Positions 3,693 to 63,759 of a stretch of DNA of 64,000 bases are shown here, in pieces. The notes beneath the pieces were generated by a model. It ran no database searches, had not been told where the DNA came from, and was given only the letters and a program-made list of their open reading frames with translations. Source of the DNA: Burkholderiaceae bacterium (lineage in GTDB: Bacteria; Pseudomonadota; Gammaproteobacteria; Burkholderiales; Burkholderiaceae_D); NCBI GenBank assembly GCA_036384915.1, contig DASVLJ010000042.1, forward strand, positions 33,013 through 97,012, read 5' to 3'. Within the stretch, counting starts at the first letter, position 1. Each line of letters begins with the position of its first letter. Both the position numbers and the translations under genes were made by a program.

Positions 3693-4220
3693 TCAACCGG
3701 CTTCCGGCGGGGGATAACGAAGTACATGAAAACCTTCCTCCTCGCCCGGTGCAGTAAAGTAGCCCGTGATATAGTCGAATTCCGCTTCGGTCATCGGTTT
3801 CGAACCCTCGGGCATCTCCCGATTTCTCTTTTGTAATTGCGTCTTGCAATGTGCGTCAGGCCTATCGACGAAATGCAAGACGTGCTCGGCTTGCGCCGCT
3901 TCGAATAGTTCACGAAACCATGCGCGTTGCCCAGGCGTATTGCCGGGAAAATCGAGGACCACGGAAATGCCCTTGCGCAGCAAATCCGTGACATGAGGCG
4001 CGACAACGGTTTTCAGGCGCGCGGCGCAACGGAAGTAATCATCAAAACTCGAGATCGAATCCAGATACAGCCGGGAGAGCCACAAGTCTTCGCAGATCAA
4101 TACGGCGCCGTGCTCGAGCGCGAGCTTCCTTGAGAGGGTGGATTTTCCCGCGGCCATCTTGCCGCACATGAGGTGCAGGGTGGCCTTGTTGCCTGATGTA
4201 TCGGGGCGGGTCATATTCAT
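3693..4220 (-). CDS. P-loop NTPase / AAA-type ATP-binding protein (predicted kinase-like)
   Basis: Walker A GKMAAGKST near the N-terminus. Start set at MNMTRPDTSGNKATLHLMCGKMAAGKST. Confidence 0.6.
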   Translation of the reverse strand: MNMTRPDTSGNKATLHLMCGKMAAGKSTLSRKLALEHGAVLICEDLWLSRLYLDSISSFDDYFRCAARLKTVVAPHVTDLLRKGISVVLDFPGNTPGQRAWFRELFEAAQAEHVLHFVDRPDAHCKTQLQKRNREMPEGSKPMTEAEFDYITGYFTAPGEEEGFHVLRYPPPEAG

Positions 4221-4688
4221 TTCTATCCTCTTTCCATTGCCAGTCAAAACCACGCAAGGCAGAAATGAAAAACCCGCCTCACGGGGCGGGTTGAATTGAC
4301 GCATGTTGCCTAGCCGTTACTCAGCCCACCATTGTTGTTCAATGATGATTGAAATTCGGACAGCGAATGTGCGCTTGAGGTTCATGACTTCAGCTTGCCT
4401 TGGCCCTCAGGAATTGTCAAGCGGCTGTGCCGACAGTTTCATGCGCGTGTCGGTGTCAGCACGTCCTTTAAAAGCACGAGTGCATTACCCACCGTCGGGC
4501 CGCTTGCATAGAAAGTCAGTTGCGGGCTGGGCGATGAAGGCAATATCGTGATGCAAGCGATCCAGCGGGCGGCTTGACCAATTACACCAACGAGTTCATC
4601 AAGGATATTGGCTTGCAAGACTCTCCACCCCGTCCTGGCCGGCTCGCTTGGGCCGGCTTTTTATTTGTGGGAGCATGAGCGATCCTGG

Positions 4689-4704
4689 CTGTATATTTAT
4701 ACAG
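4689..4704 (+). promoter_or_regulatory. LexA (SOS) box CTGTATATTTATACAG, 28 bp upstream of the VRR-NUC gene
   Basis: Perfect CTGT-N8-ACAG palindrome with an AT-rich spacer. The extended gCTGTATATTTATACAGta matches the E. coli-type LexA consensus TACTGTATATATATACAGTA. Confidence 0.6.
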
Positions 4705-4731
4705 TAAAATGACGTATCTCCTTGCTGCGCC

Positions 4732-6411
4732 ATGAACAACAACCTTGATCGCCCGTTCTACTACCTCGAGAACTTCAGTTTCGTTCTCGAGTGGGTGAGC
4801 CTGCGCTACGGCGATTTGCTCGATGCGGAAGAAGCGGCTTTCATAGCGGGGTTTGCCGCGCTGCCGGAAGCTTCTCGCGGTTTGCTGGTGCGTATGGTCA
4901 TGCGCAAGGGAGAATTGTTCCGCGCTTCGAAATTGCACTACGAGGAAATCGGCGCGATTGCACCGGCGGTGCAGCCCTTGATCGATATGGGGTGGATAGA
5001 GGCCGACCCGGAGCTGAGCTTGGAACAGCTATACGGCTTATTGACGCGCAAGGAGTTTGCCGATGCGCTAGGCCTTGGTGCCGCCAAGACGGCGCGCAAA
5101 GGCGATCTGTATGCGATGGCGGCGCAAGAGCAAAGCGCCCCGCGCAGTTTTTCGCAATGGTGTGCCGACCTGGCCGACACCGCTTATGAAATCCGCATTG
5201 GCGCCATATGCGACCGTATGCGCTTGATGTTCTTCGGTAACTTGCACCAGGATTGGTCTGAATTCATCCTGTCCGACCTTGGCGTTTACGCTTACGAAAA
5301 GATCGAATTCTCTGCCGACTCGCGCGCCTTTGCCGCACGGGCCGATATCGATTGCTATCTGCATATCGAGGCTTGCCGGGAATTGTTCCATTCCGGCTCT
5401 GAAGGCGAAGATACAGACGGCGAATTGGCCCGCCTGGAGCAGGTTGAGCACGATGTCATGGCGATTGCCGAAACCAATCCCTGGCTCGGCGAGCGCCGTG
5501 CGCGCTTGCTGTTTCAATTGGGGCAGCGGCTGGAACAACTCGAAGCGCATGAGCAGGCTTTGCGCGTCTATGAGGCAAGCGGATATTCCGGCGCCCGCCT
5601 GCGCCGCATCCGGGTGCTGGAAAAGAGCGCGCAATTTGCTGCCGCCATGAGCCTGGCGCGCGAGGCGCAAGCGGCACCCGAAAGCGCGGCGGAAACGCAA
5701 GGGCTGGAGCGCATGCTGCCGCGCCTGGCACGCAAGCTTGCCTTGCCACGCGAAACGGCCAGGCGCTTGCGCGCCGCCGATCGTATCGACCTCGTTTTGC
5801 CGGCGCCGACCGAAGACTACTACGTCGAAGAAGTCGCACGCGCACATCTCGCTGGAGCCGAACCACGGGCGCGCGTGTTCTATGTCGAGAACGCCTTGAT
5901 CAATTCGCTGTTCGGCTTGTTGTGCTGGGACGCGGTGTTCCACAACCTGCCCGGCGCCTTCTTCCACCCGTTCCAGAGCGGACCGTCCGATTTGCACAGC
6001 GCCGATTTCCGCAAGCGGCGCGCGGCGCAATTCGAGGCCTGCCTGAAGCAACTCGAAGACGGCAGCTACCGCGATGCAATCCGCGCCAATTTTCTGCGCA
6101 AGGCGGGCCTGCAGTCTCCGTTCGTGTATTGGCAGGTCCTCGACGAAGGCTTGCTCGAACTCGCCCTGGCTTGCATACCGGCGCAACATTTGGCGCGCTG
6201 GTTCGAGCGTATCCTGCAAGACATCGCCGCCAACCGCACCGGCTTTCCCGACCTGATCCAGTTCTGGCCCGAAGAGAAACGTTACCGCATGGTGGAGATC
6301 AAGGGGCCAGGCGACAGGCTGCAAGACAACCAGATCCGCCTGATCGATTTCGCGCTCTCGCACGGCATGCCCCTGGCCGTATGCCATGTGGCTTGGGAGG
6401 GCGAGGCGTGA
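4732..6411 (+). CDS. FAN1-like nuclease with C-terminal VRR-NUC domain
   Basis: 559 aa. The C-terminus VEIKGPGDRLQDNQIRLIDFALSHGMPLAVCHV is a VRR-NUC (PD-(D/E)XK) motif. The long N-terminal region and the adjacent helicase match the bacterial FAN1 architecture. Confidence 0.75.
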   Translation: MNNNLDRPFYYLENFSFVLEWVSLRYGDLLDAEEAAFIAGFAALPEASRGLLVRMVMRKGELFRASKLHYEEIGAIAPAVQPLIDMGWIEADPELSLEQLYGLLTRKEFADALGLGAAKTARKGDLYAMAAQEQSAPRSFSQWCADLADTAYEIRIGAICDRMRLMFFGNLHQDWSEFILSDLGVYAYEKIEFSADSRAFAARADIDCYLHIEACRELFHSGSEGEDTDGELARLEQVEHDVMAIAETNPWLGERRARLLFQLGQRLEQLEAHEQALRVYEASGYSGARLRRIRVLEKSAQFAAAMSLAREAQAAPESAAETQGLERMLPRLARKLALPRETARRLRAADRIDLVLPAPTEDYYVEEVARAHLAGAEPRARVFYVENALINSLFGLLCWDAVFHNLPGAFFHPFQSGPSDLHSADFRKRRAAQFEACLKQLEDGSYRDAIRANFLRKAGLQSPFVYWQVLDEGLLELALACIPAQHLARWFERILQDIAANRTGFPDLIQFWPEEKRYRMVEIKGPGDRLQDNQIRLIDFALSHGMPLAVCHVAWEGEA

Positions 6412-8648
6412 ACTACACCGTCGCCGTGCGCGCGTTGTGCGAATTTACCGCCAAGTGCGGCGACCTCGATCTGCGCTTCACACCGGCGCCGAGCGCGCAG
6501 GAAGGCATTGCCGGCCATGCGACCGTACGCGGCCGGCGCGGCGCCGGATACAAGGCGGAAGTCAGCCTTGAAGGCGAATACGGCCCTTTGCGCGTACGCG
6601 GCCGCGCCGATGGTTTCGATGCCAAGAAAAACCGGGTCGAGGAAATCAAGACCTATCGCGGCAGCCTGGAGCGCATGCCGGACAATCACCGGCAATTGCA
6701 TTGGGCGCAAGCGAAAATCTACGGCTGGCTGCTGTGCCAAAAATTGGACCTCGATGCGATCGAGGTGGCGCTGGTCTACTTCGATATCGGCGAGCAAACC
6801 GAGACGGTGCTGTGCGAGCGCCACGAAGCGGCGACACTGAGGCAATTCTTCGAGCAAAGCTGCGAACGCTTCCTGGCCTGGGCCGAGCAGGAAATGGCGC
6901 ACCGTGCGGAACTCGATACTGTATTGCGCGAACTCGGGTTTCCCTACCCGGAATTTCGCACCGGCCAGCGCGAATTGGCCGAGGCCGCATACAAGGCGGC
7001 AGCGGTAGGCTGTGCTGTGATGATGCAAGCACCCACCGGCATAGGCAAGACCGTGGGCACGCTGTTTCCCTTGCTCAAGGCGAAAGAGGCGAAGCAGCTC
7101 GACAAGATTTTTTATCTCGCGGCCAAGACTTCGGGCCGGCAACTGGCACTCGATGCGCTCGACCTGATCGCAGGCGGCAAACCGTTGCGCGTATTGGAGC
7201 TCGTGGCGCGCGACAAGGCTTGCGAACATCCGGATAAAGCTTGCCATGGCGATTCCTGTCCGCTCGCGCGCGGCTTTTACGACCGTTTGCCGGCGGCGCG
7301 CGGCGCCATGCTCCAGGAGCCACGCTTCGACAAGGCGGCGTTGCGCCGCGTCGCGCTCGAACACGAAGTGTGCCCCTACTACCTGGGCCAGGAAATGGCA
7401 CGCTGGGCCGATGTAACGGTGGGCGACTACAACTATTACTTCGACATCAGCGCCATGCTGCACGGCATGACCATGCTGCACCAGTGGCGCGTGGCCGTGC
7501 TGGTCGACGAGGCGCACAACCTGGTGGAGCGCGGACGCAAGATGTATTCCGCCGAATTGCATCAAGCTGACCTCAAGGCCTTGCGCGCCGCGGCGCCCGC
7601 CGAAGTGAAAGGTGCGCTCGACCGCGTGAACCGGCAATGGAATGCGCTGACCAAGGAGCAGGAAGCCGAATACCAGGTTTACCCGGCCATTCCAGATAAG
7701 TTTCTCGAAGCGCTGGAGCAGGCAAACGGCGCGATGGCGGATTATCTCGTAGCGCATGCCGACGGCATAAATGCCGAGCTGCAGCGCTTCTATTTCGACA
7801 TCGGCTTGTTTGTACGTCTGGCCGAAGCTTTTGGCGAGCACACTTTGTTCGATGTGGAAAAACCGAACAAGCATGACATCGTGCTCAACCTGCGCAACAT
7901 CGTGCCTGCGCCCTTCCTCAAGCCGCGTTTTGCTGCCGCGCATGCCAGCGTGCTGTTTTCCGCCACGCTTGCACCCTGGCAATTCTATGGCGACATGCTC
8001 GGCTTGCCGGAGGAGACGCCCTGGATAGACGTGGCTTCTCCGTTTCGCGCCGAGCAACTGGCGGTGTCGATAGAAAGGCGCATTTCGACACGCTGGCGCG
8101 ACCGCGATGCGTCGCTGGCGCCGATCGCCGATTTGATCGCGCGCCACTACAAGGGGGTACCGGGAAATTATCTCGCTTTCTTCAGCAGCTTCGATTACCT
8201 GCAGCGCGCGGCCGATCTGCTCGAATCCATCCATCCCGATTTGCCCATATGGCGCCAATCGCGCGATATGGATGAAGCGGCCAAGCAGGCCTTCCTCGCT
8301 CGCTTCACGTCGGGCGGGCGCGGCATCGGCTTCGCTGTCTTGGGAGGCGCTTTCGGCGAAGGCATAGATTTGCCCGGCGACCGCTTGATCGGCGCCTTCA
8401 TCGCCACGCTCGGCTTGCCGCAATTCAATGCGGTCAATGAGCAAATCAGGGAACGCATGCAAGAGATGTTCGGCGCCGGCTATGAATATGCCTACCTTTA
8501 TCCGGGCTTGCAAAAGGTGGTGCAGGCGGCCGGCCGCGTCATCCGCACCACGAGCGACCGCGGTACCGTGACCTTGATCGACGACCGCTTTGCCGCGCCG
8601 CAGGTGCGCGGGCTGTTGCCGGGTTGGTGGGACGTTGGAGTCGTCTGA
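6408..8648 (+). CDS. Cas4/RecB-like PD-(D/E)XK nuclease fused to an XPD/DinG-family (Rad3-like) Fe-S DNA helicase
   Basis: GTG start overlaps the VRR-NUC stop (GTGA, 4-nt overlap). N-terminus has GRADGFD...VEEIK (D..E.K nuclease motif). Walker A APTGIGKT and DEAH box VLVDEAHNL are present. Fe-S motif CEHPDKACHGDSC is typical of the XPD family. Confidence 0.8.
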   Translation: MNYTVAVRALCEFTAKCGDLDLRFTPAPSAQEGIAGHATVRGRRGAGYKAEVSLEGEYGPLRVRGRADGFDAKKNRVEEIKTYRGSLERMPDNHRQLHWAQAKIYGWLLCQKLDLDAIEVALVYFDIGEQTETVLCERHEAATLRQFFEQSCERFLAWAEQEMAHRAELDTVLRELGFPYPEFRTGQRELAEAAYKAAAVGCAVMMQAPTGIGKTVGTLFPLLKAKEAKQLDKIFYLAAKTSGRQLALDALDLIAGGKPLRVLELVARDKACEHPDKACHGDSCPLARGFYDRLPAARGAMLQEPRFDKAALRRVALEHEVCPYYLGQEMARWADVTVGDYNYYFDISAMLHGMTMLHQWRVAVLVDEAHNLVERGRKMYSAELHQADLKALRAAAPAEVKGALDRVNRQWNALTKEQEAEYQVYPAIPDKFLEALEQANGAMADYLVAHADGINAELQRFYFDIGLFVRLAEAFGEHTLFDVEKPNKHDIVLNLRNIVPAPFLKPRFAAAHASVLFSATLAPWQFYGDMLGLPEETPWIDVASPFRAEQLAVSIERRISTRWRDRDASLAPIADLIARHYKGVPGNYLAFFSSFDYLQRAADLLESIHPDLPIWRQSRDMDEAAKQAFLARFTSGGRGIGFAVLGGAFGEGIDLPGDRLIGAFIATLGLPQFNAVNEQIRERMQEMFGAGYEYAYLYPGLQKVVQAAGRVIRTTSDRGTVTLIDDRFAAPQVRGLLPGWWDVGVV
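8467..8630. repeat. Direct repeat copy 1 (164 bp, within the helicase 3' end), about 98% identical to 11349..11512
   Basis: Compared by eye. tgttcggcgccggctatgaata...ttgccgggttggtgg recurs 2882 bp downstream with about 3 mismatches. Confidence 0.9.
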
Positions 8649-8817
8649 CTTGGAACCGTCACTCGAAAGCAACGAAAATGCCTCGACCAAGATTTTCTGT
8701 CAGAATTGCGTCCGACCGAAGCGGCGAAGCTCTCCAAAAGTTATCGATTATTCTTGGCATTCGAGATCGAATGTGCGACTCTTAACGGAGCATGCTGCGT
8801 GTTTGTATTCGTTCAAA

Positions 8818-18003: not shown

Positions 18004-19212
18004 TCATCCTTTGATGCAGACGACCTGGCGCAGCGTGTGCGCCACTTCCACCAGGTCGCTCTGGTGTTCCATCACCGTATCGATATCCTTGTAAGCCGCC
18101 GGAATTTCATCGACCACGCCGCCATCCTTGCGGCATTCGATGCCGCGCGTCTGCTCTTCGAGGTCGAAGCGATTGAAGCGGTGCTTGGCTTCGCTGCGGC
18201 TCATGCGCCGTCCGGCGCCGTGCGAGCACGAGCAAAATGAATCGGGGTTGCCCTTGCCGCGCACGATGTAGCTCTTCGCCCCCATGCTGCCGGGGATGAT
18301 GCCGAGTTCGCCCTGCCGCGCCGAAATCGCTCCCTTGCGCGTGACGTACAGCTTTTCATTGGCATGCTCTTCAATGGCCACATAGTTATGGTGGCAATTG
18401 ATCGCTTCGCCATCGAGCTTGAACGGCGGCAGTTGTTCCGCCATCGCGTCGACCACGCGGCGCATCATTTCGCGCCGGTTGATCATGGCGTAGTCTTGCG
18501 CCCAATCCACCGCTTCCACGTAGTCGTCGAACCATTGCGAACCCTCACTGAAATAAGACAAGTCGCGGTCGGGCAGGCGCACCTGGTGCCGCATCATGTC
18601 TTTCTTCGCCGCCGAGATGAAATAGCGTCCGATCACATTGCCGATGCCGCGCGAACCCGAATGCAGCATGATCCATACGCGCTGTTCTTCGTCCAGGCAG
18701 ACTTCGATGAAGTGATTGCCGCCGCCCAAGGTGCCCAGCTGGCAAATCCAGGTCTGGGCAAACTTGTGCTGCATCTTCATGATGCCCTTGTGTTTTGCCA
18801 CGATGCGGTCGAGCCGCTCGTTCAAGGGCCGGCCCACACGGGCATGGGCCGAACCGCGCACCTTGTTCCATTCGTGCTGCTCGAAGCCGACCGGCACGCG
18901 CAACTCGATGGCGCTGCGCAATTTCGCCAGACTGTCGGGCAGATCGTTGGCCGTCAGCGTGGTGCGCACGGCATTCATGCCGCAGCCGATGTCGACGCCG
19001 ACCGCGGATGGAATGATGGCGCCGCGCGTCGGAATGACGCTGCCGACCGTGGCGCCGGTGCCGTAGTGGACGTCCGGCATGGCCGCGACGTGCGGGTGGA
19101 CGATGGGCAGGCTCGATATGTTGATGAGCTGCTGTAACGCGTCGTGCGCGATATCGTCGGTGTAAATGTGCACAGGTACCAGCCCCTTGTGCAGGCTTTG
19201 TTTGATGGGCAT
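18004..19212 (-). CDS. rtcB: RNA-splicing ligase RtcB (second paralog)
   Basis: 402 aa with HPHVAAMPDVHYGTGATVGSVIPTRGAIIPSAVGVDIGCGM, the canonical RtcB metal-binding region. Full-length match to E. coli RtcB. Confidence 0.9.
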   Translation of the reverse strand: MPIKQSLHKGLVPVHIYTDDIAHDALQQLINISSLPIVHPHVAAMPDVHYGTGATVGSVIPTRGAIIPSAVGVDIGCGMNAVRTTLTANDLPDSLAKLRSAIELRVPVGFEQHEWNKVRGSAHARVGRPLNERLDRIVAKHKGIMKMQHKFAQTWICQLGTLGGGNHFIEVCLDEEQRVWIMLHSGSRGIGNVIGRYFISAAKKDMMRHQVRLPDRDLSYFSEGSQWFDDYVEAVDWAQDYAMINRREMMRRVVDAMAEQLPPFKLDGEAINCHHNYVAIEEHANEKLYVTRKGAISARQGELGIIPGSMGAKSYIVRGKGNPDSFCSCSHGAGRRMSRSEAKHRFNRFDLEEQTRGIECRKDGGVVDEIPAAYKDIDTVMEHQSDLVEVAHTLRQVVCIKG

Positions 19213-19487
19213 AACAATTCCTTTACTGCTTCGTTATGCCGGTGCGTCTTTGGAAGCGACTATGCGTCGCGCAAAAACAAAACCCCGATGAGTTTCCTCA
19301 CCGGGGTTCGTGGACGACCGGCTCGGGTCGGCTTGCGCCGTGCCCCGAGCGATGCGCGCGGGGCTAGTTGTGAATCGTGTTCTTGCTAGCCGTACGTGGC
19401 ATGGTCCGTCCTTTCGAAAATGTGGTTGGTAAAAAATTCTGAGATGCGATTCTGCTGCATATGCGGGCAGTGTGTCAATTCTCAAGT

Positions 19488-20519
19488 TCACACGCGTTGT
19501 ATTTTCACCTCGCTCATGTGGCCGTTTGCGTTACCGCGCTTCTCAAACGAAAAGCGCACGGGCAAGAATTTCTCGATCACCGCCGCATTGGTTTGTGCAT
19601 GCAATGAAATGCTTTCCGCCGTGTAGCTGCCGCCGCCGGCCAAGGCCATCGGCAGCATTACCTGATCGGCCAGGTGTTCGCCCAAGGCAGCGCCTGAGGC
19701 CAGATAGCGCTGCGCCTCGCCGATCGCCGTCTTGGCGACGGTCTCGGCCGGCACGCCTTTCTCGCCGAACGCGCAAAACATTTCACTCACGTGTTCATAC
19801 TCGAACGTCAGCAGCAAGGCATTGCCGGGGCCGTGCACGTCTTGCAGATTACGTCCCTGCAATTGGGTTTCATCCCAGCCGAAAGCGGAAGCCACTGCCT
19901 GCAACTCGCGCTTGGCGACGCTGTAAGGCACATTGGCCACCAGGCTTTCGCCATAGGCGCGCTTGCGCTCGCCGCGTTCGATCAAGTCGATGGGCTGCAA
20001 ATTGGCGCAAGGTTCGACCGTGGCCGAGATCATGCCGCCGCCCGCCGGATAGAAACCGTAGCGCAACAATTGCAGATCGACCTTGACCCCCATCTTTGCC
20101 AGGATGGGCAGGAACGCTCGCTGCAAAAACTGCACCGGCGGCGCCTTGGCATTATGCGTACCGCCGCTGACGCGCACCTGCGAAGGGGCATCGGCGAACA
20201 ATAACGCCGGCAATATCGTTTGCAGTACCAGTGTGCAGCTTCCGGCCGAGCCGATAGCGAATTCATAACGTCCGCCGCGTATCTTGCCCGGCACGAAGGC
20301 CAGCACGTTGGTACCGACTTCGGCATGGTCGAGCACCGCGCCGCATGCTTCGGCCGCCGCTTGCACGGCCACCAGGTGCTGGCGCATCAAGCCCGGCTTG
20401 GGCCGGTTGGCGCGAATGTTTTCAATGCGAAACGATTTCCCTGTGATCATCGAGAGTGCAAGCGCACTACGCAAAATCTGGCCGCCGCCTTCGCCGGTCG
20501 AGCCATCCAACACTATCAT
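19488..20519 (-). CDS. rtcA: RNA 3'-terminal phosphate cyclase
   Basis: [44 protein letters not shown] matches E. coli RtcA [27 protein letters not shown]. Start set at MIVLDG. Confidence 0.9.
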   Translation of the reverse strand: [343 protein letters not shown]

Positions 20520-20581
20520 CTTGTTTTCTTTCTTGTTCTTGTGTCCGGCAGGGCCGGCCTTTGCCGAACCCTGCCTTGCCT

Positions 20582-21817
20582 TTACCCCTTGACGCAAACC
20601 ACCTGCTTCAAGGTATGTACTACTTCAACCAAGGCTTCCTGCGCCTGCATTACGGCGTCGATATCCTTGTACGCCATCGGGATCTCGTCGATCACGTCGG
20701 CATCCTTACGGCATTCCACGCCTTCGGTCGCCTTGACCTGGTCCGCCAGCGTGTAGCGGCGCTTGGCCTCGGTACGGCTCATGGTACGGCCGGCACCGTG
20801 GCTGCAGCTATGGAAGCTATCGGGGTTGCCCTTTCCGCGCACGATGTAGCTCTTCGCTCCCATCGAACCCGGGATGATTCCCAGCTCGCCTTCCCGCGCA
20901 GACACTGCACCCTTACGCGTTACCAGCACGTTTTTCCCGAAGTGGTGTTCCTTCTGCACGTAGTTGTGGTGGCAATTCACCGCTTCCACGTGGGTTTCGA
21001 ACGGCTTCGTGATCACGGTGCGTACCGCGGAGATCAGGTTTTGCATCATCACTTCGCGGTTCATACGCGCGAATTGCTGCGCCCAGCTCACCGCTTCGAC
21101 GTAGTCGTCATAGTGTTCGGTCCCTTCGGGCAGGTAGGCCAGGTCCTGGTCGGGCAGGTTGATGAAATGCTTGCGCATATCTTCCTTCGCCACCTCGATG
21201 AAGTACGAGCCGATGGCGTTACCCACCCCGCGCGAACCCGAATGCAGCATGAACCACACCGAACCGGCTTCGTCCAGGCACACTTCAATGAAGTGGTTAC
21301 CCGTTCCCAGCGTTCCCAGGTGCTTGTAGTTGTTGGTATTCTTCAGCTTCGGCGTCTTTTGGCAGATCGCATCGAATCCATCCTTCAAGCCCATCCAGGC
21401 CGTATCGACGGCCGTTGGCGGCGCATCCCACGAACCCTTGTCGCGTCCCTTGAAGCCGCGCGTCTTGGGCGACATGCCATGCGGCACGGCCTTTTCGATC
21501 GCCGAACGCAGCGGGCCCAGGTTATCGGGCAAATCGTTCGCCGTCAGCGTGGTCTTGGCTGCCATCATTCCGCAACCGATATCGACTCCGACGGCCGCCG
21601 GAATCACAGCGCCCAAGGTCGGGATCACGCTACCAATGGTCGAACCCTTACCGAGATGCACATCCGGCATCACGGCAATATGCTTGTAGATGAAGGGCAG
21701 CTTGGCCGTGTTGGACAGCTGGCGCTTGGCGTCGGCTTCCACGGGTACTCCCTTGGTCCACATCTTTACGTGACGTCCGCCTTCGACGTCCATGACTTCG
21801 TAATCTTCAGACTTCAT
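20582..21817 (-). CDS. rtcB: RNA-splicing ligase RtcB (first paralog, adjacent to the Y-RNA array)
   Basis: 411 aa with HIAVMPDVHLGKGSTIGSVIPTLGAVIPAAVGVDIGCGM. About 55-60% identical to the second paralog by eye. Confidence 0.9.
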   Translation of the reverse strand: MKSEDYEVMDVEGGRHVKMWTKGVPVEADAKRQLSNTAKLPFIYKHIAVMPDVHLGKGSTIGSVIPTLGAVIPAAVGVDIGCGMMAAKTTLTANDLPDNLGPLRSAIEKAVPHGMSPKTRGFKGRDKGSWDAPPTAVDTAWMGLKDGFDAICQKTPKLKNTNNYKHLGTLGTGNHFIEVCLDEAGSVWFMLHSGSRGVGNAIGSYFIEVAKEDMRKHFINLPDQDLAYLPEGTEHYDDYVEAVSWAQQFARMNREVMMQNLISAVRTVITKPFETHVEAVNCHHNYVQKEHHFGKNVLVTRKGAVSAREGELGIIPGSMGAKSYIVRGKGNPDSFHSCSHGAGRTMSRTEAKRRYTLADQVKATEGVECRKDADVIDEIPMAYKDIDAVMQAQEALVEVVHTLKQVVCVKG

Positions 21818-21836
21818 GTCTATTCTCTTTTAAATT

Positions 21837-21974
21837 AATGGCGACAAGATCGATGAAATACAGGGTTTCCCCTTTTTGCTGCTCTACTCACTGAGCTACG
21901 CCAACCCCGAGGGGCCAACGACAGGATTTGCACCTGCGACAATCAAAATCGATGTAATTCCATCAGCATTCGCC
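21837..21974 (-). ncRNA. Y RNA-like module 1 (YrlA-like, with tRNA D-arm mimic)
   Basis: Lies between rsr and rtcB, as does Salmonella yrlBA. 5' GGCGAATGCTGATGGAATTACATC can pair with 3' GATCTTGTCGCCATT. Internal GGGGTTGGCGTAGCTCAGTGAGTAGAGC is a near-canonical tRNA acceptor plus D-arm. Confidence 0.45.
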
Positions 21975-22006
21975 GTAAACTTTACGACAGCACTTCTTCA
22001 AAACAA

Positions 22007-22089
22007 AATGGCGACAAGATCGGTGAAATAACCCGCTTTCGCGGAATTACCGGAGAAGGGTAGTTGATGTAATTCCACCAGCATTCGCC
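22007..22089 (-). ncRNA. Y RNA-like module 2 (YrlB-like, short)
   Basis: Same 5' (GGCGAATGCTGGTGGAATTACATC) and 3' (GATCTTGTCGCCATT) terminal sequences as module 1, enclosing a short internal hairpin. Confidence 0.4.
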
Positions 22090-22093
22090 AAAA

Positions 22094-22189
22094 CCATTCC
22101 GACAAAATCGGCAAAAGGATCACGGCCATCTCACGGCGGCCGCGTCTGGAGTCGAACCAGTTAACCAATGTACTCCTGCCAGCATTCGG
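22094..22189 (-). ncRNA. Y RNA-like module 3 (with tRNA T-arm mimic)
   Basis: 5' CCGAATGCTGGCAGGAGTACAT and 3' GATTTTGTCGGAATGG are related to the ends of modules 1 and 2. Internal CTGGTTCGACTCCAG is a T-stem-loop mimic (TTCGACT loop). Confidence 0.35.
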
Positions 22190-22193
22190 AGAA

Positions 22194-22267
22194 ACCATTG
22201 GATGCAACGCGACAAATAGTAGTGTGATCTAACATTTTCCATATGTAATCACACCCGCATTCGCGCC
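22194..22267 (-). ncRNA. Y RNA-like module 4 (degenerate)
   Basis: 5' GGCGCGAATGCGGGTGTGATTACATATGG and 3' TTTGTCGCGTTGCATCCAATGG share the GCGAATGC...TTGTCGC end motifs. Boundaries are approximate. Confidence 0.3.
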
Positions 22268-22280
22268 GCACCCAAAACCT

Positions 22281-23840
22281 TTACTGCAGCGATACCGCTT
22301 CGATCTCGCCCACCCAGTGGGCCGGAGATAACTGGCCAGCCGCGAAGGCCGCCACGATCTTGAACACGTCGTCGGAAAAACCGCCAACGTTCAAGATATC
22401 GTCGCGTTCCACCGCTTGCGTGGTGCCGTAGGGCGCGATGTCGATACAGACCATCTTTGCCTGCGGGTTGCGCCGCTTGAAAATCTCCCACTGCTGCATC
22501 GTCGCCGAAGTGCCGCGCTTGGCATCGACCCAGGATTGGTTGTCCGATACAAACACAACCAAATCGGCTTGCGCCTTTTCCTGGTTCAACTTTTCCAGGG
22601 GCGCGCTGCAGTTGGTACCGCCGCCGCCGATGGCCGCCAGCTTGGACGCATTCGTCATCACGCTGTCGCGCGGATTCAAGTCGCATTTCACGACCTTTAC
22701 TTCGAACGGCAATACGCGCGTTTCCTCATTCTTGCGCAGCAAGGCTGCAGCGACCAGGGCCGCCACATCGATACAGCGCACCGCCGTGGTGGCTGTTCCG
22801 CGCTGGCCCGTGGCAGGCGTGGACATCGAGCCCGATACGTCCGGGCACACCACCACGCGGCCTTCCAGCTGCGGCACGTTGCGTAAGGCGATTTCCAGCG
22901 CATCCTGCAAGGCGGCGCGAATCGGCGCCGGCACTCCCTCCCCGGCAGCCTTGTAAGCCGCCAGCAATTGGTAAGGAAATACCTTGGCCTTGGCAATCGC
23001 TTCGGCGTCGCGCAGCTTGCGCGCCACTTCCTCGACCATGCCGGGCAATTCGAACACACCGTGACGGGCAAAGGTGTTCAAGTTCATGCGCACCATATGC
23101 CAGCCGCCCTTCTTGGCGATTTCGGCCCAGGCCTCGCGCGGCAATTCCAATGCGGTCAGCATCTGGAACGGCACGTCGGGCACAGGCAGCGACCGGTCTT
23201 GCTTGTACGCCTCGAAAGCGCGCACGATGGGCGGCAAGGCTTCCGCCTGGTATTCCTTGCCGATCAGCCAGGCGAAGAACGCTTCGCGCCAGGCCTCCGC
23301 GGGCTTCGGGTGAACCATCTTCACCACGTCCGCCAGCGAAGGCGCGTTGCCGACCGCTGCCGACAGCAATTCCTTTTCGCTCGCCGTGTTCAGCCAAGCT
23401 TGCACCAGCTTCTTCGGCCGCGTACCGAGCGACTTGCGGCCTAACGCGCCGGAGCGGATCATTTGCACGAAGTTGCGCAACATTTTGCCGTTGTTGATCG
23501 TGCGCTTGAAGGCCGAAGCCGTTTGTGCCGCGCCTTTGGCCGCCAGGATGGCGGTCAACAGCGCAGGCATGTCCTTCATATAGCCGCGTTCGCGGCAATA
23601 CACGGCCGCTTGCCCGATGAATTGCGCATCGACATCCTGGCACAGCTCCAGCACCGTGGCCAATTGCGTCTCGGCGCCGGCGTAGTAAGTCGCGTTCAGG
23701 CACCCGGTGGCGGCATATTGTGCCAGCTTGTGCTTGGGCGCCAGCGCATAGGCCGGAGCGCCGGCGAAATTCACCGTGTTCGTTTGCGGCAGCAATTTGC
23801 CGCGCAGCGTTTGGAACAAGTTGGCGTTTGCCATTTTCAT
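22281..23840 (-). CDS. rsr: Ro60-related protein (TROVE domain plus vWA/MIDAS domain)
   Basis: 519 aa. Located upstream of Y-RNA-like repeats and rtcBA, as in the Salmonella rsr-yrlBA-rtcBA operon. C-terminal VVCPDVSGSMS is a vWA MIDAS motif. Confidence 0.85.
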   Translation of the reverse strand: MKMANANLFQTLRGKLLPQTNTVNFAGAPAYALAPKHKLAQYAATGCLNATYYAGAETQLATVLELCQDVDAQFIGQAAVYCRERGYMKDMPALLTAILAAKGAAQTASAFKRTINNGKMLRNFVQMIRSGALGRKSLGTRPKKLVQAWLNTASEKELLSAAVGNAPSLADVVKMVHPKPAEAWREAFFAWLIGKEYQAEALPPIVRAFEAYKQDRSLPVPDVPFQMLTALELPREAWAEIAKKGGWHMVRMNLNTFARHGVFELPGMVEEVARKLRDAEAIAKAKVFPYQLLAAYKAAGEGVPAPIRAALQDALEIALRNVPQLEGRVVVCPDVSGSMSTPATGQRGTATTAVRCIDVAALVAAALLRKNEETRVLPFEVKVVKCDLNPRDSVMTNASKLAAIGGGGTNCSAPLEKLNQEKAQADLVVFVSDNQSWVDAKRGTSATMQQWEIFKRRNPQAKMVCIDIAPYGTTQAVERDDILNVGGFSDDVFKIVAAFAAGQLSPAHWVGEIEAVSLQ

Positions 23841-23896
23841 TTCCTTTTCTTTCTTTACGCATCACCGAGTCGTCGGCGTTGCTTTCCCTGCCTGTA

Positions 23897-23914
23897 TTGC
23901 AAACGGTGTGCCAG
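23897..23914 (-). promoter_or_regulatory. sigma54 (-24/-12) promoter CTGGCACACCGTTTGCAA driving rsr-Y RNA-rtcB-rtcA-rtcB
   Basis: Perfect TGGCAC-N5-TTGCA on the minus strand, about 55 bp upstream of the rsr start. Divergent from the sigma54 activator gene rtcR. Confidence 0.7.
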
Positions 23915-24052
23915 TTCTGCGGCGGTACCATCGCGATGGATTCAAGTATTTGAAAATAAAAGAGAATTTTTCCGACTTCCCAAAGTGAGTGAATTTTCGA
24001 GTATGCCCAGCTTCGTGATATATTTATCTTAAAAGATAAGTAATTATCCAAA

Positions 24053-25651
24053 ATGAAGAAGAAAAAAATCGTCGTCATCGGCTTCATCGGCACCCAGCTC
24101 GATAGCGGCAAGGGCAGCGGCCGCTGGGAAAAATGGCGCCCGACCGTGGCGCTGACGCAGTATGAGGATGTGGTGATCGACCGCTTCGAACTCCTGTACA
24201 GCGGCCGTTTCGATGAATTGGTCGGACGCGTGGCGGGCGACATTGCGCAGGTCTCGCCCGAGACAGTCGTGGTGCCGCGTGCGCTGCCGATTACCGACCC
24301 TTGGGACTTCGAAGACGTTTACGGCAACCTGTTCGACTTCGCGCGCAGCTATCCCTTCGACCCGGACAAGGAAGAGTATTGGGTTCACATCACCACCGGC
24401 ACGCACGTGGTGCAAATCTGCCTGTTCCTGATGACGGAGACGCGCTATTTCCCCGGCCGCTTGTTGCAGACGTCGCCGCCGCGGCGCCAGGCGCCCGGCC
24501 AGGCGGGCAACTACGAGCTGATCGACCTCGACCTGTCCAAGTACGACCAGATCGCCCAACGCTTTTCGCGCGAACAGGAAGAGGGGGTGGCCTTGCTCAA
24601 GTCCGGCATTGCCACGCGCAATGCGCGTTTCAATGCCATGATCGACGAAATCGAACGCGTGGCGCTCAAGTCGCGTGCACCCATGCTCTTGATGGGGCCG
24701 ACCGGCGCGGGAAAATCCTTCCTTGCGCGCCGCGTGTTCGAATTGAAGAAGGCGCGGCGCCAGCTCGACGGCAAGTTCGTCGAATTGAATTGCGCCACGC
24801 TGCATGGCGACGGCGCCGCCTCCACGCTGTTCGGCCACGTCAAGGGCGCCTTCACCGGCGCGGCGGCGGACCGGCCGGGTCTGCTGCGTTCGGCTGACAA
24901 GGGCTTGCTGTTTCTCGACGAAATCGGCGAACTTGGATTGGACGAGCAAGCCATGCTGCTGAAGGCTGTGGAAGAAAAGCGCTTCCTGCCGGTCGGCAGC
25001 GACAATGAAGTGCAAAGCGATTTCCAATTGATCGCCGGCACCAACCGCGATCTCGGGCGCGAAGTGGCGGCCGGCCGCTTCCGCGAAGACTTGTATGCGC
25101 GCATCAACTTGTGGAGTTACGAGCTGCCCGGCTTGAGCGAGCGGCGCGAGGATATTGCGCCCAACCTCGACTATCTGCTGGCGCAATTCAGCGCGGAGAA
25201 TGGCCACATGGTGCGCTTCAACAAGGAGGCGCGCGCAAGTTACATGCGCTATGCCGATTCGCCCGACGCGCTATGGAGCGGCAATTTCCGCGATCTGTCG
25301 GCATCGGTGGCGCGCATGGCGACTTTGGCCGATGCGGGGCGCATCACCGATGCGGTGGTCGGCGACGAGGTGCAGCGTTTGAAGCGGCAGTGGCGCTCGC
25401 ATGCGGTTGAAGACGATGGCGTGGAGGCGGATTTGGAGCAAGTGTTGGGCGCCGAAGCGGCAGCCGGACTCGATTTGTTCGATGCCTTGCAATTGCAGGC
25501 GGTGCTCAAGGTGTGCCGGACTTCGAAGTCGCTGTCAGACGCCGGGCGCAAACTGTTCGCCGCTTCGCGTGAGCAAAAGGCCAGGGCGAATGATGCGGAC
25601 CGGCTGAAGAAGTATCTGGCGCGCTTTGGCTTAAATTGGGAAAGGCTTTAG
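24053..25651 (+). CDS. rtcR: sigma54-dependent transcriptional regulator RtcR (CARF-like N-domain plus AAA+ plus HTH)
   Basis: 532 aa. N-terminus MKKKKIVVIGFIGTQLDSGKGSGRWEKWRPTVAL is typical of the RtcR CARF domain. Walker A MGPTGAGKS. The ESELFGH-like motif appears as STLFGH (…DGAASTLFGHVKG…). Divergent from rsr. Confidence 0.9.
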   Translation: MKKKKIVVIGFIGTQLDSGKGSGRWEKWRPTVALTQYEDVVIDRFELLYSGRFDELVGRVAGDIAQVSPETVVVPRALPITDPWDFEDVYGNLFDFARSYPFDPDKEEYWVHITTGTHVVQICLFLMTETRYFPGRLLQTSPPRRQAPGQAGNYELIDLDLSKYDQIAQRFSREQEEGVALLKSGIATRNARFNAMIDEIERVALKSRAPMLLMGPTGAGKSFLARRVFELKKARRQLDGKFVELNCATLHGDGAASTLFGHVKGAFTGAAADRPGLLRSADKGLLFLDEIGELGLDEQAMLLKAVEEKRFLPVGSDNEVQSDFQLIAGTNRDLGREVAAGRFREDLYARINLWSYELPGLSERREDIAPNLDYLLAQFSAENGHMVRFNKEARASYMRYADSPDALWSGNFRDLSASVARMATLADAGRITDAVVGDEVQRLKRQWRSHAVEDDGVEADLEQVLGAEAAAGLDLFDALQLQAVLKVCRTSKSLSDAGRKLFAASREQKARANDADRLKKYLARFGLNWERL

Positions 25652-25761: not shown

Positions 25762-26841
25762 CTATGCCATAAACTCGCACAACAAGCGATGAAAGTGATG
25801 CACGCCGCGCTCGCGTGTCGGCGAATAGCGTCCATGACGGTAAAACCGCGAACGCACGCCGCGCTGTACGGCGCGCACGATTTCCTCGTCTTCCATCTCT
25901 ACCGTGTCAAGCCCTGACCCGGCGCCTTTGTCTAGCTTTTCCACATTCCACACGAAAGACCGGAAGCTGATGCGTGTCCGTTCGCGCGATTGCGGCTGGA
26001 TCAGGTTCAGCGACAGACCCCAGGGGTAGAAGTTGAGCATCAGGTTGGGAAACACCCACCAGTAATACGCCGCCACGCGCTTGCCATGGTCTGTTGCTCC
26101 AGCCGGAATATCGAACGCCGGCTCGCCCTCGCGCGCGATCGCCAGCTGCAGGTTGGCATAGCGCCCGATCTCGCTGGCATAGCTGCCGTATTCGACCACC
26201 GCATTCAAGCCGGCATGCACGAAGGGAATGTGGAAGCCTTCGAGATAGTTTTCCACGTAGAGTGCCCAGTGCGCGTCGAGATCGAAGTCGCGATCGCGGC
26301 CCGGATCGTGCACGAAATCCCCTATCGGCAGCCAGGACAGGCGCGTTTCGATTTCCGCCATGAAGTCGCTCAAGGCCGCTGCCGGCGCGATGGAAGCGAA
26401 GCCATGCTTGCGCCAGGTTGCGAAGGGCACGCTTGGCAAATTATCGGCCTCCGAAGGAAAGTTTTGCGCCTCGGCAAATTCCGGCATGGAAAGCATCTTG
26501 CCCGTCAGATCGAAACGCCGCGCATGGTAGCCGCAGCGGATTTGCTTCAATTGGCAGGCTTGATGGACCAGGATATTGCCGCGATGGGTGCAGACGTTGG
26601 ACAGGCAACGCAATTCGCCCTGCTCGTCGCGCGCCAGCATCAAGGGTTCGCTCAACAAGCCGGGAAGCAATTCGCGCGGCGCCACGCTGCCGGCCCGCGC
26701 CGCGTCGTCAGCCAAGCCCAGCCATTGCCACGAGCGGGCGAAGACACGTTCGCGTGCTTCCTGGAAATATTTTTCCTCTGTGTAAAAGGAAGTATCGAGC
26801 GTGGCCGCCTTGGTGATGTCGGCTTCGATGGAAAACGCCAT
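25762..26841 (-). CDS. Rieske [2Fe-2S] aromatic-ring-hydroxylating oxygenase alpha-subunit-like protein
   Basis: Rieske motif CTHRGNIL...CGYHARRF (CXH-N15-17-CXXH) followed by a catalytic domain. Start chosen at MAFSIEADITK. Confidence 0.7.
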   Translation of the reverse strand: MAFSIEADITKAATLDTSFYTEEKYFQEARERVFARSWQWLGLADDAARAGSVAPRELLPGLLSEPLMLARDEQGELRCLSNVCTHRGNILVHQACQLKQIRCGYHARRFDLTGKMLSMPEFAEAQNFPSEADNLPSVPFATWRKHGFASIAPAAALSDFMAEIETRLSWLPIGDFVHDPGRDRDFDLDAHWALYVENYLEGFHIPFVHAGLNAVVEYGSYASEIGRYANLQLAIAREGEPAFDIPAGATDHGKRVAAYYWWVFPNLMLNFYPWGLSLNLIQPQSRERTRISFRSFVWNVEKLDKGAGSGLDTVEMEDEEIVRAVQRGVRSRFYRHGRYSPTRERGVHHFHRLLCEFMA

Positions 26842-27103
26842 GCGCACTCCGTCCTTGTGGTTTCCGGAAACGATAAGCGAGGACCACGTGTACGGCAAGT
26901 CCTATTTCCCCTCATTTTTATGGCATTTGCCGTATGGCTCAATTTTCCGGCCACGCGCAAGTCGACGTCGATTGAAATGAGACCATTCGATCAGCCATGC
27001 TTTGGCGGATGGAACCGTCTGCGTTACACTCACACCTCTCGGTTTTCATTTCTCAGGATTTCCATTTCTGAGGTGACAGGTGTGACGTTTCAAGGGTAAG
27101 CGC

Positions 27104-61788: not shown

Positions 61789-63759
61789 ATGTTGAGCGAA
61801 GCATTCAGTCTGGTCTGGGTTCCCTATGTCCTGGACACTATCGTCGTCGTGCTGGTGCTGGCGATCATCGCCAAGATCACCGGCATGGTGCGCTATATTC
61901 CGAACGACCGCGTCGGCGTGGTCGAAAAACTCTGGAGCACCGGGGGCTCGGTCAAGAGCGGCTTGCTGGCCTTGCACGGCGAAGCCGGTTTCCAGCCCGA
62001 ACTGCGGCGCGGCGGCTTCCATTTCTTCCCGCCGCTTCAATACCGTGTGCACATCCGTGAAATGATCTCGGTCACGCAGGGCAAGATCGGCTACGTGTTC
62101 GCCCGTGACGGCGTCGACCTGCCCGTGGGCCAGACCCTGGCCGACAATGCCAAGGTGTCCGACTTCCTCGACGTGCGCGCCTTCCTCGAAGGCGGCGGAC
62201 AAAAGGGGCCTCAGCGCAAAATTCTGCGCGAAGGCACGCACGTGATCAACCCGGCCATGTTCGTCGTCATGACCGAGGAAGCCACCTATTCGCTTTCCCT
62301 CAATGCCAAGGAGGTCGAGTATTACGAACAGATGCGCGGCGTGCTGGTGGAACGCCTGGCTTTCCGCCCGGTGGTGATCAAGGAAGCCGACGGCGCGCAC
62401 GACTCGGACCAATTGGCCATCGTCACCGTGCAGGACGGCCCGGGCTTGCCCAAGGACGAGCTGCTGGCGCCGGACGTGGGCGACGCGCACAATTCCTACC
62501 AGGAACCGGAAAAATTCCTGGCTGCCGGCGGCAAGCGCGGGCGCCAGGAGCGGGTGCTGGTCGAAGGCACCTACTACATCAACCGCCTGTTCGCCACAGT
62601 CGAATTCATTCGCAAGACCATCATCCCGGTCGGCTACGTCGGCGTGGTGGTGTCCTACACCGGGCGCAAGGGCGACGACCTCTCGGGCAAGGAGTACAGC
62701 CATGGCGAGCTGGTCGAAGCCGGCTGCCGCGGCGTCTGGCGCGACCCGCTGATGCCGGGCAAGTATGCCTTCAATACCTATGCCGGCAAGATCGAGCTGG
62801 TGCCGACGACCAACTTCGTGCTGATGTGGAAGTCGGGCGAAAGCGGTTCGAACTTCGACTCGAATCTGCGCGAAATCACCTTGATCACCAAGGATGCGTT
62901 CGAACCGCAACTGCCGCTTTCGGTAGTGGTGCACATCGACTATCGCAAGGCGCCGATGGTGGTGCAGCGTTTCGGCAACGTGAAGCAACTGGTGGAACAG
63001 ACGCTCGACCCGATGGTCTCGTCCTATTTCAAGAACGTGTCGCAGACCAAGACCTTCATCGAGCTGATCCAGTCGCGTAGCGAATTGCAGGAAAACGCCT
63101 CGGAAGACATGAAGGCGCGCTTCCAGATGTATTCGCTGGAATTCCAGGAAGTCTTGATCGGCACACCGAAGCCGCAGCAAGGCGATACCAAGATCGACAA
63201 CATCATGGCCCAGCTGCGCGACCGCCAGATCGCGCGCGAGCAGGTCGAGACCTTCGCGCAAAAGCAGATCGCGGCCGACAAGGAACGCGAGTTGAACGAA
63301 GCCGAGCAGCGCGCCGCCAAGCAAAAGGAATTGACCGGTTCGCTGGTCGATATCTCGATCAAGGAAAACATGGGCGCCGCCAGTGTCAAAGCCGCTGAGA
63401 AGAAACGCCAGGAAATCGAGGCGCTGGCCCAAGCCGAAAAGTTCCGCCAGGAAGTCGAAGGTGCGGGCCGCGCCTCGGCGATCCGCTCGGTCGGCGAGGC
63501 GGAAGCCGCCGCGATCAAGGCCAAATCCGAAGCGCTCGAAGGCGAAGGTGCCGACAAGCAATTGATGCAAACCGTGATGCTGCGCCTGGCCGAAGCCTTT
63601 GAAGCGGCCCGCGTGCCGCTCGTGCCGCAGATCCAGCTGGGCGGCGGCAGTGAAGGCAATGCCTTCTCGACGCTGATATCGCTGATGAGTTCCTTGAAAG
63701 CCGAAGAATTGGCAAACAGCCTGGCCAACCCGGCCAAGCGCGCGAATCAAGAGGCTTGA
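61789..63759 (+). CDS. flotillin-family protein (SPFH domain plus long coiled-coil / EA repeats)
   Basis: 656 aa. N-terminal TM VLDTIVVVLVLAIIAKI, SPFH core, and a C-terminal Ala/Glu-rich coiled coil (AEQRAAKQKEL...AEKKRQEIEALAQAEKFRQEVEGAG). The 718-aa minus-strand ORF opposite is antisense artefact. Confidence 0.8.
   Translation: MLSEAFSLVWVPYVLDTIVVVLVLAIIAKITGMVRYIPNDRVGVVEKLWSTGGSVKSGLLALHGEAGFQPELRRGGFHFFPPLQYRVHIREMISVTQGKIGYVFARDGVDLPVGQTLADNAKVSDFLDVRAFLEGGGQKGPQRKILREGTHVINPAMFVVMTEEATYSLSLNAKEVEYYEQMRGVLVERLAFRPVVIKEADGAHDSDQLAIVTVQDGPGLPKDELLAPDVGDAHNSYQEPEKFLAAGGKRGRQERVLVEGTYYINRLFATVEFIRKTIIPVGYVGVVVSYTGRKGDDLSGKEYSHGELVEAGCRGVWRDPLMPGKYAFNTYAGKIELVPTTNFVLMWKSGESGSNFDSNLREITLITKDAFEPQLPLSVVVHIDYRKAPMVVQRFGNVKQLVEQTLDPMVSSYFKNVSQTKTFIELIQSRSELQENASEDMKARFQMYSLEFQEVLIGTPKPQQGDTKIDNIMAQLRDRQIAREQVETFAQKQIAADKERELNEAEQRAAKQKELTGSLVDISIKENMGAASVKAAEKKRQEIEALAQAEKFRQEVEGAGRASAIRSVGEAEAAAIKAKSEALEGEGADKQLMQTVMLRLAEAFEAARVPLVPQIQLGGGSEGNAFSTLISLMSSLKAEELANSLANPAKRANQEA

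Follow-up and report, generated by a model that had tools for sequence, protein, structure and literature searches.

A probable array of four YrlA- and YrlB-type Y RNAs in the rsr-rtcB spacer of a Burkholderiaceae RNA-repair operon

We analyzed a 64,000-nucleotide (nt) stretch of DNA from a Burkholderiaceae bacterium (assembly GCA_036384915.1, contig DASVLJ010000042.1, positions 33,013 to 97,012; hereafter the window), focusing on the spacer between rsr, which encodes a Ro60 ortholog, and the RNA ligase gene rtcB. This 463-nt spacer on the minus strand holds four related modules, which we numbered Y1 to Y4 in transcription order. On the sequence evidence given below, the spacer very probably carries a tandem set of four non-coding Y RNA genes of the YrlA/YrlB kind, within an RNA-repair operon controlled by RtcR and sigma-54. 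We observed directly the modules’ family membership in sequence and structure, the covariation of their helices, their operon context and their orthology with modules in related bacteria. The locus is ordered rtcR (divergent), sigma-54 promoter, rsr, Y1, Y2, Y3, Y4, rtcB and rtcA, with rsr through rtcA all on one strand; its features, in window coordinates, are as follows (aa, amino acids; bp, base pairs).

24053..25651, plus strand: rtcR, sigma-54 enhancer-binding activator, divergent from the operon (Pfam RtcR 2.1e-82, Sigma54_activat 9.5e-49)
23898..23913, minus strand: sigma-54 (-24/-12) promoter consensus TGGCACACCGTTTGCA, an exact match 58 nt upstream of the rsr ATG
22281..23840, minus strand: rsr, Ro60 ortholog, 519 aa (Pfam vWA_Ro60 4.1e-19, TROVE 1.7e-6)
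22198..22275, minus strand: Y1, YrlB-like long hairpin without tRNA elements, terminal stem of up to 15 bp
22097..22193, minus strand: Y2, T-arm-only class, with Y stems, a T-arm mimic and a hairpin, without D-arm
22007..22092, minus strand: Y3, intact Rsr-type stems with the motif GGCGAAUG, without tRNA-like core
21839..21975, minus strand: Y4, full YrlA type, with Y stems, V-like hairpin, T-arm, closed acceptor-like stem, UA plus D-arm, and an extra hairpin
20582..21817, minus strand: rtcB, RNA ligase, the first gene 3' of the array (Pfam RtcB 4e-134)
19488..20597, minus strand: rtcA, RNA 3'-phosphate cyclase (Pfam RTC 1.2e-81, and RTC_insert)
19272..19306, minus strand: terminator-like hairpin and U-run CCCCGGUGAGGAAACUCAUCGGGGUUUUGUUUUUG 3' of rtcA, read off the sequence

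The sigma-54 consensus is oriented away from rtcR, and the site upstream of rsr (TGGCAC-N5-TTGCA) is the sole match without mismatches to TGGCAC-N5-TTGCW in the 64-kilobase (kb) window. By analogy with the Salmonella rsr promoter, we infer that this site drives the rsr operon; no sigma-70-like promoter was predicted in 21500-24300. At the other end, the hairpin 3' of rtcA would likely mark the end of the operon. Homologs of Rsr in Oxalobacteraceae and other Burkholderiales share 70-94% identity with it and carry the names Ro ribonucleoprotein or TROVE in their sources.

A preliminary description of this DNA had proposed four Y-RNA-like modules between rsr and rtcB, with ends that pair into a stem. 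The repeats, folds, covariance models and covariation all bear this out. The array had been assigned to 21837-22267, which is the right place; its true extent is 21839-22275, slightly wider at the rsr end, placing its modules 6-442 nt past the rsr stop codon. A repeat finder returned four copies of a 32-nt repeat, at 21952-21983, 22067-22098, 22168-22199 and 22243-22274, with 63-100% identity to the reference copy, each being the reverse complement of ...GCGAATGCTGxTGGAATTACAT. A second family covers CTTGTCGCCAT at the 3' ends of the modules, that is, the 3' motif CUUGUCGCC. The 22-nt 5' motif occurs in the rsr-rtcB spacer only, within 64 kb. All four modules adopt a common fold: the ends pair as stem 1, an asymmetric internal loop (AUGC / AUCUUG) separates it from stem 2, and the interior beyond stem 2 varies; the same two helices enclose a conserved core, GAAUGC...UUGUC. 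Compared with shuffled sequences, the folding z-scores are -5.6 for Y1 (minimum free energy -31.4 kcal/mol), -1.1 for Y2, -2.9 for Y3 and -2.7 for Y4.

The interiors of the modules differ. Y1, whose core motif reads CGCGAAUGC...UUUGUCGCG, has orthologs at three related loci (L082, L081 and L001). Y2 carries a T-arm mimic, CUGGUUCGACUCCAG, at 22160-22146, with the canonical T-loop UUCGACU, and a hairpin at 22144-22121 that shows compensatory changes in the orthologs of L082 and L081. The interior of Y3 consists of a C/U-rich hairpin loop and a GAAA-capped hairpin (22044-22033). Y4 is the most elaborate: a V-like hairpin at 21953-21942 is followed by a T-arm, GCAGGUGCAAAUCCUGU, at 21937-21921, a closed acceptor-like stem at 21920-21899, UA and a D-arm at 21898-21881, and an extra GAAA-type hairpin at 21873-21862. 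The V-like and GAAA-type hairpins are shared with several relatives, and the minimum-free-energy fold of Y4 has the same arms as its covariance-model alignment. The preliminary description had seen an acceptor plus D-arm string, GGGGTTGGCGTAGCTCAGTGAGTAGAGC, in its module 1, our Y4, and a T-arm mimic, CTGGTTCGACTCCAG, in its module 3, our Y2. Both are present, at 21908-21881 and 22160-22146, respectively. It had also taken the tRNA-like elements to be distributed over different modules, and this does not hold: Y4 alone combines the T-arm, the closed acceptor-like hairpin, the UA linker and the D-arm, and Y2 represents another conserved class, which has a T-arm and a hairpin of its own and no D-arm. 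A reading of the acceptor and D-arm of Y4 as a tRNA gene was rejected. ARAGORN found neither tRNA nor tmRNA in the window, the Rfam tRNA model did not exceed its gathering score there, and the acceptor-like stem is a closed hairpin.

We assembled a comparison set of 80 genomic rsr loci and those of three closer relatives from metagenomes, and built three covariance models solely from the relatives’ modules, without window sequence: R1 for short hairpin modules, R2 for full tRNA-like modules and R3 for T-arm-plus-hairpin modules. E-values for these models refer to a search of the whole window. The four modules are the top four matches of R2 and again of R3. Y4 was matched best by R2, over its full length with T-arm, acceptor-like stem and D-arm aligned (88.1 bits, E 2.7e-24); Y2 by R3, also at full length including the T-arm (58.1 bits, E 8.6e-14); and Y1 by R1 (58.0 bits, E 1.4e-13). 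The best match to Y3 came from R2, through the stems only (46.8 bits, E 7.8e-12); R1 (39.9 bits) and R3 (39.4 bits) likewise aligned to Y3 through its stems alone. In the R1 ranking Y4 appears only fifth, as a weak 46-nt partial match (E 0.3), because its insert is too long for R1 to span; R2 resolves it. All remaining matches of the three models in the window have E >= 0.015. Weak matches at 7206-7271, 8679-8768 and 62835-62919 (E 0.015-0.1) were treated as chance, and the two alignments inspected lack the GAAUGC core.

Covariation strongly backs the helices. In alignments fitted to the models, and so carrying some bias toward the structure, the two Y stems formed standard pairs in 89.6% of cells across 150 R1 matches, compared with 66.2% in shuffles, and the five-helix YrlA structure was 97.1% paired across 77 R2 matches, compared with 76.9%. 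Compensatory double changes occur at 16 of the 17 pairs of the Y stems and at 23 of the 30 pairs of the YrlA structure, including all seven acceptor-stem pairs. Sliding the register of the Y stems by one to three columns reduced pairing to 23-57%. Both this result and the number of pair types remain far outside the controls.

At gathering thresholds, Rfam returned no matches over the whole window. A permissive scan, restricted to 21700-22400, was suggestive: its top families for the four modules were YrlA and YrlB, with full-length alignments of YrlA to Y3 (30.3 bits, E 1.6e-4), Y2 (30.1 bits, E 1.9e-4) and Y4 (28.2 bits, E 7e-4) and of YrlB to Y1 (27.2 bits, E 3.3e-3), all far below the gathering scores of 69 bits for YrlA and 97 bits for YrlB. 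The Rfam/Infernal scan that the preliminary description had called for thus finds YrlA three times and YrlB once, each short of threshold. In relatives, modules of the R2 family do pass the YrlA gathering score, at 70-80 bits, with three passing modules in the spacer of L062 and two each in those of L013 and L058. Since these homologous modules pass, the shortfall in the window reflects divergence from the Rfam model; and since the R2 family is continuous from the passing modules to Y4, the YrlA homology is secure.

Aligning the spacer with those of L082 (Rsr 94% identical) and L081 (Rsr 90% identical) revealed one-to-one orthologs of Y1, Y2 and Y4. The ortholog of Y3 in both relatives is a full YrlA, relative to which Y3 lacks ~70-95 nt of T-arm, acceptor stem and D-arm and keeps both Y stems and the terminal GAAA hairpin. 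The arrays of these close relatives also differ in content, since L081 has a ~100-nt insertion between Y1 and Y2 (4140-4322, with a 60-aa gene called on the opposite strand and no Pfam matches) and an extra short hairpin module after its last YrlA (4668-4727).

On this evidence, the modules can be assigned to classes. By position, stem motif and domain order (T stem-loop, closed acceptor-like stem, UA linker, D stem-loop), Y4 is a YrlA. Y1 is best described as YrlB-like in its architecture, its core and its position between rsr and the YrlA-type modules, though not as a sequence member of RF02565; sequence homologs of YrlB were reported from S. enterica only (Chen et al, 2014; PMC4201824). Y2 and Y3 qualify as Y RNAs through their stems, motif, position and orthology, but not as YrlAs in the strict tRNA-like sense. 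The stem motif GNCGAAN0-1G is fitted exactly by Y3 and Y4, which both read GGCGAAUG.

Several observations weigh against this interpretation. None of the four modules reaches an Rfam gathering score, and the minimum free energy of Y2 is no better than that of shuffled sequences. The strict GNCGAAN0-1G motif is not fitted by Y1 (CGCGAAUG) or Y2 (UCCGAAUG), which have the CGAAUG core only; in these modules, the first motif position belongs to stem 1 and covaries with it. Y3 no longer has the tRNA-like core retained by its orthologs, so individual modules could be decaying. Y4 has the lowest R2 score of its class, and it deviates at two nearly invariant positions of the tRNA-like elbow, where the L-shape calls for a T-loop UUCRANY and a D-loop GG: the T-loop, UGCAAAU, has G at position 2, the pseudouridine 55 site in tRNA, where 73 of 77 relatives have U, and in the D-loop, AGUGAGUA, the GG is interrupted, with A at the expected G18. 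The same pair of changes is found at an unrelated locus (L024:5669-5797; UGCAAUU / AGCAGAUA), and may represent tertiary covariation at the elbow, with G18:U55 replaced by A18:G55. Two further G55 modules depart from this pattern, one keeping the D-loop GG and one having no D-arm.

We considered four other explanations of the spacer. The array could be in part a graveyard, with function confined to one or two modules, such as Y1 and Y4, while Y3 and perhaps the tRNA-like domain of Y4 are decaying duplicates that have ceased to be bound or used. The missing T-arm, acceptor stem and D-arm of Y3, all present in the 94%- and 90%-identical relatives, would fit such decay, as would the rare changes at conserved T-loop and D-loop sites of Y4 together with its low R2 score, and the lability of module number in relatives, which ranges from 1 to ~8-9. 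We nevertheless consider it unlikely: both Rsr-type stems and the GGCGAAUG motif of Y3 are fully intact and near-identical to those of Y4, Rsr genuinely binds the hairpin-only RNAs YrlB and Yrn2 in the species studied (PMC4201824), and the recurrence of the Y4 changes in L024 hints at compensation rather than decay. A mainly cis-acting role, in which the spacer would set the ratio of rsr to rtcBA expression, through attenuation or as a platform for processing, instead of giving rise to trans-acting RNAs, strikes us as very improbable. The array does lie between co-transcribed genes, and two of its hairpins (22144-22121 and 22045-22032), each followed by a U-rich tract, were flagged as terminator-like. 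The U-tracts are weak, however, and we set these hairpins aside as attenuators because they are integral, covarying parts of Y modules. Moreover, the same modules lie elsewhere relative to rsr in other bacteria, where they yield stable Rsr-bound RNAs (PMC4201824), and a cis role would leave the conserved tRNA mimicry unexplained.

The remaining two alternatives are scarcely tenable. Short, imperfect, hairpin-forming intergenic repeats invite comparison with repetitive extragenic palindromic (REP) or other dispersed elements that happen to occupy the spacer, and copies elsewhere in the genome had been named in the preliminary description as the finding that would point to them. We found none in the window or at the related loci. 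Outside the spacer, the 22-nt motif is absent from the 64 kb, and nothing in the window besides the modules falls below E 0.015 with any of the three models. R1 gave 239 matches in 81 sources, all on the rsr strand, and at the 80 loci of the genome scan all 218 aligned R1/R2 matches lie between the rsr stop and the rtcB start. For the window and for these ~80 related loci with their 3-kb flanks, the dispersed-repeat explanation is effectively refuted. A small protein gene has as little to recommend it. The spacer does contain an open reading frame (ORF), of 69 aa at 21998-22207 on the minus strand, but it starts with TTG, overlaps two covarying RNA modules (Y2 and Y3) and is not credibly coding, because the orthologous region of the closest relatives shows large indels; no conserved homologous peptide was seen.

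Taking the spacer as four tandem Y RNAs, we infer their transcription, processing, Rsr binding and effector tethering from homology with Salmonella, M. smegmatis and D. radiodurans. In Salmonella, tRNA fragments with a 2',3'-cyclic phosphate end activate RtcR, and both YrlA and YrlB are bound by Rsr (PMC7790460, PMC4201824). More generally, bacterial Y RNAs are Rsr-bound, and their genes share the strand of rsr and lie no more than 4 kb from it (PMC4201824, PMC7790460, bioRxiv 10.1101/312249). By this model, activation of RtcR would produce a single transcript running from the sigma-54 promoter upstream of rsr through the array and into rtcBA, from which the four structured modules would be excised and then stabilized by Rsr binding. 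Rsr would contact each RNA at its conserved terminal helix with the adjoining internal loop (core CGAAUGC / UUGUCG, the GNCGAAN0-1G region), and the distal part of each RNA would act as a variable effector or gating module. Y4 would offer a tRNA-shaped domain, Y2 a T-arm and hairpin, and Y1 and Y3 simple hairpins. These distal modules may gate the Rsr cavity, tether Rsr to PNPase (a tether shown in Deinococcus) or tRNA-binding proteins, or both.

The closest known counterpart is the Salmonella Typhimurium operon rsr-yrlB-yrlA-rtcB-rtcA (YrlA RF02553, YrlB RF02565), which has the same gene order, strand, divergent rtcR and sigma-54 promoter. There too the Y RNAs lie between rsr and rtcB, the hairpin type comes first and the tRNA-like YrlA last, the core reads cgaAUGC...UuGucG, and the T-arm, closed acceptor stem and D-arm follow one another in the same order. 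The preliminary description had likened the array to Salmonella yrlB-yrlA with more copies, and the shared architecture agrees with this, with four modules in the window compared with two. In contrast to Salmonella, the modules of the window score below Rfam gathering (27-30 bits), they include a T-arm-only class (Y2) and a tRNA-less derivative (Y3), and in Y4 additional hairpins flank the tRNA-like domain, a V-like one preceding the T-arm and another following the D-arm.

Other systems share particular features. In Mycobacterium smegmatis, two or more Y RNAs, YrlA and YrlB, are processed from one precursor adjoining rsr (PMC4201824); the second RNA, YrlB, has a T-arm only, like Y2, and YrlA has a 7-bp acceptor-like stem, as does the R2 consensus for Y4 (PMC4201824). 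Deinococcus radiodurans likewise co-transcribes several Y RNAs beside rsr (Yrn1 and Yrn2), each combining an effector module with a stem that binds Rsr; a T-arm-like loop is present in Yrn1, and the functional model is that of a PNPase tether and gate. The D. radiodurans RNAs differ in belonging to a more metazoan-like lineage and in lying upstream of rsr together with a tRNA gene, and a full YrlA tRNA-like domain is unreported for them. The vertebrate Y RNAs Y1, Y3, Y4 and Y5 also form sets of 2-4 paralogs with a Ro60-binding terminal helix and variable distal loops, but they are transcribed from Pol III genes, their conserved helix is GGUCCGA with a bulged C, and they have no tRNA-like domain.

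Spacer length between rsr and rtcB varies among the relatives, from 125 to 1627 nt. Counting modules with a simple motif-plus-pairing detector, we found none at one locus, one at 18 loci, two at 19, three at 20, four at five, five at eight, six at three, seven at four and eight at two. Covariance-model matches agree, giving ~8-9 modules for Undibacterium L009 and L015 and seven for Massilia aquatica L032. As relatives carry from 1 to ~8-9 modules, the four in the window are unremarkable. In the Undibacterium arrays (L009:4635-6139, L015:4661-6178 and other loci), spacers of 1.4-1.6 kb contain five or six short hairpins, one T-arm-only module, and then two or three long ones. Inside the L015 array lies a 127-aa ORF (5261-5644) with a Pfam match to zf_Tbcl, a probable treble-clef zinc finger (3.1e-11).

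Some relatives contain a further module class that is absent from the window (L029:4942-5059, L002:5487-5606, L005:4972-5090, L028:5061-5175 and L074:4641-4766). It is laid out as GAUGAAUGC...ACAUGG-UAGAGC, an anticodon-like arm, AGGUC, a T-arm, a closed acceptor stem and UAGCUCAG. The minimum-free-energy fold of the L029 copy is a four-way junction with the D-stem closing and the Y stem emerging from the D-loop; the L002 copy, folded by itself, did not take this shape. Going by the L029 fold, modules of this class resemble an entire tRNA body with a D-loop permutation, an arrangement that the Rfam YrlA consensus does not have.

The hairpin that precedes the T-arm in relatives (the “V” arm) often has a 7-nt loop, CU-NNN-A(A/C), that resembles an anticodon loop, followed by AGGUC, which resembles a variable loop. 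In two YrlA modules (L005:4828-4887 and L013:4053-4112), the Rfam tRNA model exceeds its gathering score over the V-arm part. The V-arm of Y4 is a degenerate version (AUCGAUUUUGAU, UUGUC). The likeness of the V-arm to an anticodon loop fits the published model in which YrlA originated from a dimeric tRNA transcript.

Outside the operon proper, a second full-length rtcB paralog of 402 aa (18004-19212, minus strand; Pfam RtcB 5e-132) lies downstream of rtcA. The 275-nt spacer between the two contains the terminator-like hairpin at 19272-19306, so this second rtcB is probably a separate transcription unit. A gene for a Rieske ring-hydroxylating oxygenase alpha subunit adjoins rtcR both in the window (25762-26898, minus strand) and in the relative L081 (1-597), so synteny reaches past the operon. 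In Massilia aquatica, a tandem glycine riboswitch (L032:871-1085, minus strand; Rfam 68 and 39.5 bits), unrelated to the Y array, lies upstream of the rtcR region.

Multi-copy Y RNA loci are not new in principle, since an earlier survey counted 355 putative YrlAs in 254 bacteria and 22 phages, listing matches at most 4 kb from rsr, and two or more Y RNAs are present in each of the three species studied (Chen et al, 2014; PMC4201824). Among the papers searched, which for larger arrays were the known Wolin-lab papers and reviews, we found no description of Y RNA arrays this large, of this class structure or of the permuted class; the search did not extend to the supplementary tables of that survey. 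As a tentative proposal, the rsr-rtcB spacer of Oxalobacteraceae, neighboring Burkholderiales and some Gammaproteobacteria might be a fast-evolving Y RNA cassette array that supplies Rsr with a repertoire of adaptors or decoys, going beyond the YrlB and YrlA pair described so far. The spacers hold from 1 to ~8-9 modules, which fall into four or more structural classes (hairpin, T-arm-only, full tRNA-like and D-loop-permuted tRNA body), and on this view modules would be duplicated, swapped and stripped of domains over short timescales, as in the loss of the Y3 core relative to a locus whose Rsr is 94% identical.

The array in the window is itself a divergent but ordinary example of a known RNA-repair operon, not a new arrangement, and leaves the current picture of Y RNA function unchanged. 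It places in the Rsr/Y RNA/RtcB system four non-coding RNA genes that standard Rfam-based pipelines miss, their scores being far under the thresholds. The clade-specific models R1, R2 and R3, together with the loci collected here, are a resource for asking what the effector modules bind. The wide variation in Y RNA copy number and class composition between close relatives points to rapid module turnover in this clade, and Y3, which has shed its tRNA-like domain and kept its Rsr-type stems, offers a naturally occurring test of which Y RNA parts are required.

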